Positions 2,420 through 15,550 of a stretch of DNA of 64,000 nucleotides are shown piece by piece. A program made the translations under genes and the position numbers. The DNA is from Carcharhinus amblyrhynchos (taxonomy: Eukaryota), in contig OZ336891.1 of NCBI GenBank assembly GCA_965287045.1, positions 47,120,001-47,184,000 of the forward strand, given 5' to 3'. Position 1 is the stretch's first letter. Every line of letters starts with the position of its first letter. The notes below the pieces were generated by a model. That model was not told the DNA's origin. It saw only the letters and a list, made by a program, of their open reading frames with translations, and did no database searches.

Positions 2420-3340
2420 CTGATGTCCTGGGATATTAAAAGCTGAACAAGAGTGAGCAGTGCCTGCACAAGAGAAAGTAGAAGAACAGCAATGGAATGG
2501 AAGACTAAAGAAAGCATAGCCGGGCAGACAAAGCTACAAGATGTGGGGCACAGTACCCACAGATGGAGTACGATATTGGTAAATGAGGTCATCCATTTTG
2601 GTAGGAAAAACAGCAAAATGGACTAGTTAAGTGGTAAAAAAATTGCAGCATACTACTGTGCAGAGGGACCCAGCTGTCCTTGTGCAAGAATCACAAGGAG
2701 TTGGTTTGCAGGTAATTAAGGCAAATGGAATTTTGTCCTTCATTGCTAGAGGGACAGTTTAAAAACAGCGAGGTTATGTTGCAGCTGTATAAGGTGCTGG
2801 TGAGGCCACACCTGGAGTACCGTGTACAGTTTTGAGAAAGTATGTGCTGGCACTGGTGGAGGTGCATAAGAGATTCACTAAGTTGATTCTGGAGTAGCAA
2901 GAGTTGGCTTATGAGGAGAAACTGAGTAGACTGGGGCTGCACTCATTGGAATTCAGAAGGGACCTTATAGAAATAAAAGATTATGAAGGAAATAGATGTT
3001 AGAAGCAGGGAAGTTGTTTCCACTGACAGAACTAGGGAGCATGGCTTCAAAATAAGGGAAAGCAGAATTACGACTGAGTTGAGGAGGAACTTCTTCACAC
3101 AAAGGGTTGTGAATCTGTGGAATTTACTGACCAGTGAAACAGTTGAGGCTACCTCATTAAACGGTTTTAAGGCATGGATAGATAAATTTTTGAACAGTAA
3201 AGGAATTAAGGTTATGGTGAGCAGGTGGGTAAGTGGAGCAGAGTCCATGAGAAGATCAGCCATGATCTTATTGAGTGGCAGTGCAGACTCAAGGGGCCAG
3301 GTGGATCCTACTTCTAAATCATATTGTTTTGGGTTTCTAT
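2420..3340 (+). mobile_element. CR1 LINE 3' part (RT C-terminus and 3' UTR), decayed
   Basis: EVIHFGRKN, LYKVLVRPHLEY, ELRRNFFTQRVVNLWN. Confidence 0.9.
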
Positions 3341-7964: not shown

Positions 7965-8248
7965 TTTTTTTATTACAATTCAATCAAGTCCAATTCAGAG
8001 TCTCAATAAGTGAGACATTCCCAATCCAAGCTGACAAGACAGAGCTTTCACCTCCTGTCCTGGGCTTGATCTACATGATCCAGACTGATTGGAGGAAGAG
8101 CTATGCCTACTCCAAGGCTTGATCTCATTTACATCTTAGCCAAAAGGCCGAGATGCTGCTTTTAAAAGTTGCTTCAAATGAAGCTGAAATGTAACCTAAT
8201 GACTTCAACCAAGCACAGCTTATTGATACTACACTTGATCTTAGCCAA
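7965..8248 (-). mobile_element. Short element with two U2 snRNA-derived segments (Keno/Utopia/SINEU-like)
   Basis: Minus strand: 8248-8225 = U2 nt 17-40 (ttggctaagatcaagtgtagtatc); 8153-8133 = U2 nt 7-27 (tctcggccttttggctaagat); ends in gtaataaaaaaa. Confidence 0.75.
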
Positions 8249-15179: not shown

Positions 15180-15550
15180 GTGAACGGTGCCTGCGCCGCT
15201 CCGTGTGGCCTGTAAAGCCGCGGTGAGCGGTATTCTCACTGACCAGTGAAAACCCCATCGCCAGGCTGGATCCAGGACAGCGTCTCCTCCCCAACAACCA
15301 GCCTTCACTCTCCCACAAACCCCTGCGTCTTATACGCACGCGCACTCCGCCGGGCGGCACCCGCCAGGGCGGAGACAGCGCCAACTCTCGCCTGGGAGGA
15401 CTCGGCGCAGCTCGGAGGCTGCGCAGGAGGGCGGGCCGGGAGGACTCCTCTGTTCAGGGATGGCGCCACCCGTGGGCTAGGAGGACTCAGCGCAGCTCGG
15501 GGACAGCGCCACCAGCGGCTGGGAGGACTCATCTCTGTTTGGAGACACTG
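15180..15550 (-). promoter_or_regulatory. cyb5r1: CpG-island promoter / 5' UTR of cyb5r1
   Basis: Strongly CpG-rich non-TE segment; GC boxes (gggcgg 15347-15372, 15428); cgcacgcgca element; overlaps the first coding exon. Confidence 0.8.
15244..15258 (-). CDS. cyb5r1: NADH-cytochrome b5 reductase 1, coding part of exon 1 (MGFSL)
   Basis: gcgATGG Kozak context, ATGGGGTTTTCACTG|gtcagt; phase 0 joins exon 2 to give MGFSLTS (Gly2, Thr6 myristoylation-type motif); 55 aa through exon 2, equal to human CYB5R1 as recalled. Confidence 0.8.

Follow-up and report, generated by a model that had tools for sequence, protein, structure and literature searches.

A short U2-headed retroposon family in a shark genome, with traces of insertion in U2 snRNA genes at the target base of a Keno-type LINE

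The genome of Carcharhinus amblyrhynchos carries a dispersed, non-coding retroposon family with a unit of about 305 nt, a head derived from U2 snRNA and about 3,000-4,000 copies. One copy lies on the minus strand at 7965..8248 of the window, by which we mean the whole stretch of 64,000 nucleotides that was analyzed. From the sequence record of the copies, we consider it probable that the masters of the family sat in U2 genes at nt 37/38, that Pol II transcribed them from the promoter of U2, and that they were retrotransposed by a Keno-type LINE of the Tx1 clade. The initial annotation had described the element as a dispersed, non-autonomous, U2-headed retroposon of SINEU type, and this description was borne out. 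The window copy itself is unremarkable.

The window copy opens with an exact 24-nt match to nt 17-40 of a U2 gene from the same genome (8248-8225, minus strand) and contains a second exact match, to U2 nt 7-27 (8153-8133, minus strand), as the initial annotation had stated for both pieces. AATAAA and a run of seven A close the unit at 7974-7965 on the same strand. With the window alone, Rfam gave E values of 0.48 and 1.8 for the two pieces, and no hit was obtained at the gathering threshold across the window. The same layout was found at about 3,000 places in the genome, so the U2 pieces of the window are not chance matches. The head was correctly read as nt 17-40 in this copy, but the family head is longer, comprising U2 nt 1-40, of which nt 1-16 are missing here. 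Two segments initially taken as unique turned out not to be so. The first, of about 70 nt, starts by repeating the U2 head, inverted and imperfectly, and the second, of about 160 nt, is really two duplicated hairpin modules and a 3' hairpin. The features of the window are listed below.

7965..8248, minus strand: whole element, a 5'-truncated subfamily A copy, family nt 17 to about 304 (genome search, alignment)
8225..8248, minus strand: head, with the branch-pairing GUAGUA, matching nt 17-40 of the genome's U2 exactly (sequence)
8192..8221, minus strand: family nt 44-73, repeating the U2 head imperfectly and inverted, for which pairing with U2 nt 11-38 is predicted (alignment, fold)
8171..8184, minus strand: small 5-bp hairpin, then a U-run, T5-6 in the family majority (sequence, fold)
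8131..8156, minus strand: second U2 piece (nt 7-27 exact), stem-loop I plus three extra pairs (Rfam, sequence, fold)
8077..8125, minus strand: hairpin module 1, its base starting with U2 nt 24-31 (sequence, fold)
8095..8110, minus strand: module-1 loop with a 16-nt micro-inversion (carried by the window copy and L012, 2 of 120 near-full copies)
8023..8072, minus strand: hairpin module 2, duplicating module 1; the two share their base and differ at the apex (sequence, fold)
8000..8016, minus strand: 7-bp 3' hairpin, with one pair U-A in subfamily A and C-G in subfamily B (subfamily alignment)
7965..7995, minus strand: pentamer-repeat tail, AATAAA (7974-7969) and A tail (sequence)
4121-3972, minus strand: host exon 2, cytochrome b5 reductase-like, bounded by AG and GT (PDB search, reading of splice signals)
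15244..15258, minus strand: host exon 1, putative, with a coding part of five codons, ATG at 15258 and GT at 15243 (sequence reading)

The window copy is old. It is 89% identical to the subfamily A majority and 84% to the B majority, it is the most diverged of 30 aligned loci (90%), and its 3' hairpin is damaged. No TSD is visible, the longest word common to both flanks being 7 nt and A-rich. The module-1 loop micro-inversion is shared with L012 on a different chromosome and represents either a minor lineage or a recurrent event. From the placement of exon 2 and the putative exon 1, the copy appears to lie within putative intron 1, in the sense orientation of a cytochrome b5 reductase-like gene, with some 3.8 kb between it and the 3' splice site. 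The orientation agrees with the initial annotation, but the assignment of the gene is weaker: cytochrome b5 reductases made up the top 11 of 12 PDB hits for the exon 2 protein, with a best E value of only 0.046. Most likely, the copy is an inert intronic passenger.

To size the family, we combined several counts. Genome searches gave 2,961-3,273 first-look candidates, and in the search that returned 2,961 the 40 scored matches covered nearly the whole query. Exact 22-mers from the 3' hairpin (subfamily A form) and the 5' body occurred 861 and 1,661 times, respectively, while the reversed controls occurred 0 times. Capture-recapture from the overlap of the 22-mers on C1 (20/43) gave a rough figure of about 3,600 copies. 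Sampling 390 kb at random yielded one copy of 237 bp and one tail of 35 bp, which is not enough to size the family. In the aligned copies, the unit runs from U2 nt 1 to the A tail and the flanks are unrelated; the sequences shared among the flanks of 55 copies were Keno ends (3) and one other repeat (3). This other repeat lies in the upstream flanks of L008, L019, and L109, and its orientation differs among them. Copy number, consensus ends, and TSDs together describe a multicopy family with a shared body, not a single-copy sequence. Words of the element were also present in 20 of 24 listed sequencing runs, which comprised ten coded organism labels and unlabelled runs; none of the runs listed as containing it was of RNA.

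Typing of 120 distinct near-full copies assigned 86 to subfamily A, 26 to subfamily B, and 8 to neither. The closest neighbors of a good A copy were 94-96% identical, and a B copy had 34 neighbors at 99% among 40 scored matches. Thirty copies of the youngest group were examined: 12 were identical to the majority over 290 nt, every 5' end fell at U2 nt 1-10, exact TSDs of 9-18 bp were found in 10, and no common upstream flank was seen on inspection. The 99% neighbors, majority-identical copies, and TSDs indicate that part of the family is very young. In older copies, TSDs of at least 8 bp were found in 11 of 55, compared with 0-2 in shuffled pairings. The 5' end lay at U2 nt 1-8 in 37 of 54 position-ordered copies, and no target-site consensus was found in 41 3' flanks of dispersed copies. 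The head/body junction is fixed at nt 40/41 and subfamily-diagnostic positions are present. To judge from these sequences, the family was amplified from master copies and is not a sum of independent chimeric retrocopies. Diverged relatives with 78-84% identity to the majority were also observed (L360:1855-2144, minus strand; L170; L177), as was a copy with its final 26 nt inverted (L307:1732-1757, minus strand).

Much of the body derives from rearranged U2 sequence. Family nt 44-68 correspond imperfectly to U2 nt 13-39 in reverse complement, and the two duplicated modules measure 49-50 nt each. Colinearity with U2 is confined to nt 1-40 and 4-27, which excludes a U2 processed pseudogene. On a young full copy, U2 was the sole meaningful Rfam match, with no tRNA, U1, U4, or U5 hit. 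With 51.8 bits against Rfam U2, a full-length element (L296:1382-1573) passed the gathering score of 46, so such copies could be mis-annotated as U2 genes.

In the predicted fold, nt 11-38 pair with nt 45-72 and GUAGUA is covered. The unpaired probability of GUAGUA was at most 0.06 at five of its six bases in the A majority and at most 0.04 at all six in the B majority. Fold z scores were -4.2 for the window copy, in which the head hairpin is kept, and -4.4 and -6.6 for the majorities. Pairing was found in 98% of cells across 33 copies, and two pairs showed shared two-sided changes (16 U-A to 15 C-G at one, 25 U-A to 5 C-G at the other). By a pair-count measure, the three two-sided pair changes were not in excess, since 292 of 500 shuffles scored equally high. 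The two common pair changes count as single inherited events, and palindrome repair could produce them too. Selection on the RNA structure is suggested, and the inverted strand is predicted to fold over the U2 head and block its pairing with U6 or branch sites. The initial annotation had proposed such pairing within the host pre-mRNA, which does not fit well with a head predicted to be locked in a hairpin and located kilobases from a splice site. Its proposal that the second U2 piece acts as a target mimic is weak, because nt 28-57 around the Keno cut site are absent from this piece, which folds as an extended stem-loop.

We then characterized the U2 genes and the LINE that resides in them. 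U2 arrays of two kinds are present, with units of 407 bp and 10.5 kb, and the LINE occurs in both. At full length it measures 5.4 kb, with intact ORF1 and ORF2 and the Pfam domains Exo_endo_phos (APE), RVT_1, and zf-RVT; its ORF1 (L080:1022-2278) matches zinc knuckles as well as ZCCHC3 RNA-binding-domain profiles. Along 281 kb of the array with 407-bp units (C98:1-281000), we counted 397 intact units and 36 interrupted by the LINE. The 3' junctions of the LINE lie at nt 38 in 35 of the 36 and at nt 39 in one, and the 5' junctions run to nt 45-59. The U2 of the 407-bp array (C98, also C334) is a variant with 88% identity to the canonical copy over nt 1-186. An APE enzyme at U2 nt 38 fits the description of Keno in the available part of the source, where the downstream flank is given as U2 nt 39 (PMC4640811). 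Many LINE ends are dispersed, and the Keno-end motif occurs 1,051 times in the genome. Some Keno copies carry their own U2 5' head (L362:1474-1589, L357:1493-1574, L192), which suggests that the LINE too may be co-transcribed from U2 genes. Elsewhere, about 13 Keno-type copies stand head to tail behind one U2 promoter (C45:1795690-1848955; L273-L278, L067). These copies have a 5' end unlike that of the C98 family, and U2 nt 38-57 lie between copies at the two junctions that were read.

The element is strongly associated with this LINE. On C1, 8 of 44 Keno-end motifs had an element motif within 400 bp, with 0.03 expected, and in the first 30 Keno-end loci inspected the element lay directly downstream on the same strand at 6. 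At L082, nearly the same target word follows two LINE ends and the element. This co-location and the shared target base uphold a tie to a Keno-type LINE, as initially suggested. The suggestion that the element is derived from Keno did not hold. Its body and tail contain no Keno sequence, a Keno-like tail is absent, and BLAST found only the U2 part in common between the element and the resident Keno. The comparison of the 3' part with the autonomous UTRs, which the initial annotation had called for, gave no match above shuffles: Smith-Waterman scores of body and tail against the Keno UTRs and the whole length were no higher than the best of 40 shuffles. The subfamily B tail and the Keno end have a 9-nt word in common around the poly(A) signal.

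Traces of insertion in U2 genes were found in several copies. Seven tails continue into U2 from nt 38/39 onward (all inspected; 0 in the control), and L353 is an eighth. The U2 sequence runs on to nt 126 in L180, nt 112 in L183, and nt 50 in L288. In L157, L181, L182, and L290 it ends at nt 47/48, and a second A-run comes next, at a distance of 20-26 nt from AATAAA. A search for this double-A-tail pattern gave 3 hits, two of them elements and one unrelated. L290 reads, in order, U2 12-50, a full element, A, U2 39-48, and an A-run. We interpret it as an element that entered the Keno site, the target being duplicated, and then moved elsewhere as a unit. L353 consists of a LINE end, U2 38-192, a 215-bp spacer (82%), U2 1-37, the element, and U2 39-45, in line, so that a whole array unit is preserved.

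At the 5' side, a search for extra U2 gave 12 hits, namely 10 elements with a U2 piece ending at nt 37-58 and 2 Keno copies with an additional U2 head, one of which is inside the array. Taken alone, extra 5' U2 pieces could arise by template switching onto U2 RNA. Four copies (L232, L235, L263, L358) carry 8-37 nt of U2 upstream flank, and both array types are represented. Beside the 10.5-kb array lies a duplicated pair of loci, L230/L231, with decayed sequence from upstream of U2 (80-85%, in pieces that reach to about -810), U2 1-14, a retrocopy, and element nt 25-168. The retrocopy is an antisense processed pseudogene that interrupts the U2 head of the relic locus (L230:2030-2456, and L231), and it reads like a putative ribosomal protein S18 copy. 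In all, the copies in a U2 context, found by targeted patterns, number about 20 of roughly 3,500 (<1%).

Copies within U2 arrays had been one of the checks proposed initially. Decayed loci with U2 upstream sequence exist, and no element body was present in the 407-bp array that was read. None was found among the 397 intact and 36 interrupted units, 290 of the 745 kb of C98 having been read. Flank searches for both U2 gene types found no intact master behind canonical U2 upstream sequence, only the decayed pair L230/L231. About 265 kb of C45, 20 kb of C334, and 290 kb of C98 were read directly, and what remained of C98 and C334 was searched with exact patterns only, including tail-plus-U2 patterns. 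An intact live master did not turn up in any of these searches, so the very young group has no visible source in the sequence covered.

These observations fit a cycle in which source copies would reside in U2 snRNA genes at the Keno target base. There, the U2 promoter would drive a Pol II transcript from U2 +1 through the element, polyadenylated at the element's own AATAAA. Transcripts from snRNA promoters normally end by a 3' box and not by polyadenylation. The ORF2 protein of Keno would then capture the element RNA. Most new copies would go to dispersed sites without a promoter, and a rare copy landing in a U2 gene would regain one and found the next master, which would explain the successive subfamilies. 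Throughout, the inverted strand would mask the U2 head from U6 and branch sites. From the sequences, both transcription from the U2 promoter and reverse transcription and insertion by the resident Keno-type LINE are likely. Counting against the cycle are the usual 3'-box ending of snRNA-promoter transcripts, the small number of copies in a U2 context, and the lack of a live master, of a Keno-like tail, and of a target consensus in most copies. More tentatively, and with somewhat more doubt than belief, we put forward a fuller version in which the family is a still-active retroposon of two habitats, its masters renewed by homing to U2 and its selected antisense strand disarming the U2 head, which would spare the spliceosome from poisoning by the RNA.

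The main alternative is that the element is a SINEU-like retroposon mobilized by Keno but transcribed mainly from unrelated host promoters, with U2 heads acquired by template switching and the copies in U2 genes being dead ends. We consider this unlikely. It would account for the absence of a live master in the U2 arrays examined and for the 10 copies whose 5' ends bear additional U2 pieces, differing in length, and the available text on SINEU-2 describes repeated head addition and transcription from an upstream flank (PMC4494074). However, mature U2 RNA does not contain the upstream flank seen on four copies, nor can it give downstream U2 followed by a second A-run, as seen in four copies at different loci. 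Unrelated promoters also fit poorly with young copies that start at nt 1-10 and show no common upstream flank on inspection, and with the fixed head/body junction at nt 40/41.

Three other explanations have far less in their favor than the U2-gene cycle. A classical Pol III SINE, with internal boxes arising by chance from U2-derived sequence, is very unlikely: a 9-mer that agrees with the B-box consensus occurs twice in the body, but there is no A-box match, T-runs at nt 15 (T4), nt 97 (T5-6), and nt 120 (T4) would terminate transcription before the B-box words, and the spacing from AATAAA to the A-run suits Pol II cleavage. The classical Pol III SINE class was rejected for the lack of an A box and for these T-runs. 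We give just as little credence to an internally deleted (SIDE type) derivative of a Keno-like LINE, possibly extinct. The same target base is used and the 9-nt poly(A)-signal word is shared, but the part found by BLAST is U2 only, alignment to Keno stays within the range of shuffles, and the body is made of U2 inversions and duplications. As a class, LINE-tailed SINEs and SIDEs were rejected since the 3' end, and for SIDEs also the 5' end, is not shared with the partner LINE. That the window copy regulates splicing of its host gene by pairing with U6 or branch sites is the least credible of all. Its sense orientation in putative intron 1 and the exact U2 17-40 match would suit such a role, yet pairing is predicted for the head, no other locus of the aligned set is as diverged, the 3' hairpin is damaged, and the splice acceptor is 3.8 kb away. 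A role in splicing is unlikely.

The closest known systems in design are the crocodilian SINEU-1, -2, and -3, which in the available sections of their description are also shorter than 500 nt, with a U2-derived head, a poly(A) tail, and internal oligo-T runs (PMC4494074). Some SINEU-1 subfamilies have a second U2 piece, as does the shark element, and further likenesses are the lack of a LINE-shared tail, tandem insertions, and a Tx1-clade partner deduced from target use (PMC4494074). The shark element has a U2 nt 1-40 head, is short, non-coding, and poly(A)-tailed, has TSDs, and was apparently amplified from master copies. Mobilization by a Tx1-clade LINE would fit the strong co-location and the shared target base. 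The partner and target differ: SINEU has Tx1-Mar as its partner and a Mariner element as its target (PMC4494074), whereas the partner here would be a U2-targeting Keno-type LINE, and some insertions lie at U2 nt 38. This different partner and target suggest an origin independent of crocodilian SINEU. SINEU were found in crocodilians only (Kojima 2015), and in the text available their transcription was left open, since the U1/U2 promoters lie outside the RNA, and masters in U2 genes were not proposed (PMC4494074). Searches of the open literature listed no such family outside crocodilians; an entry in Repbase or Dfam may exist. SINEs known from cartilaginous fishes, SacSINE1 and the CmiSINEs, are short retroposons with tRNA heads, Deu or CORE domains, and L2 tails, and the words "snRNA" and "SINEU" are absent from the available text of the paper on them (PMC5499810).

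The sequence record offers a candidate answer to the open question of SINEU transcription, namely insertion into a U2 gene at the site of the partner LINE. If the two-habitat reading is true, it would supply the missing mechanism, together with an independent origin outside crocodilians. The family also suggests how a LINE can mobilize an RNA with which it shares no tail, and because one subfamily is very young and the partner LINE is intact, the mechanism is directly testable.

Keno itself has an APE endonuclease, belongs to the Tx1 clade, and targets U2 in the descriptions available (PMC4494074, PMC4640811), and the resident LINE has an APE-type endonuclease, a reverse transcriptase, and a fixed insertion near U2 nt 38. 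The LINE inserts at nt 38 with U2 duplications up to about nt 59, and the element uses the same base. Unlike Keno, the element encodes nothing, contains no Keno sequence, and is mostly dispersed. The R2 SIDEs of Drosophila, as far as the available text describes them, are likewise non-autonomous, lie within a multicopy RNA gene targeted by a LINE, and depend on co-transcription (PMC3414825). They have R2/R1 ends and a ribozyme that releases them from the co-transcript (PMC3414825), whereas our element has no LINE ends. In contrast to R2 SIDEs, its head is the 5' piece of the target itself, and it occupies thousands of non-target sites. In design the element is SINEU-like, and it resembles R2 SIDEs in a likely dependence on the promoter of the target gene.
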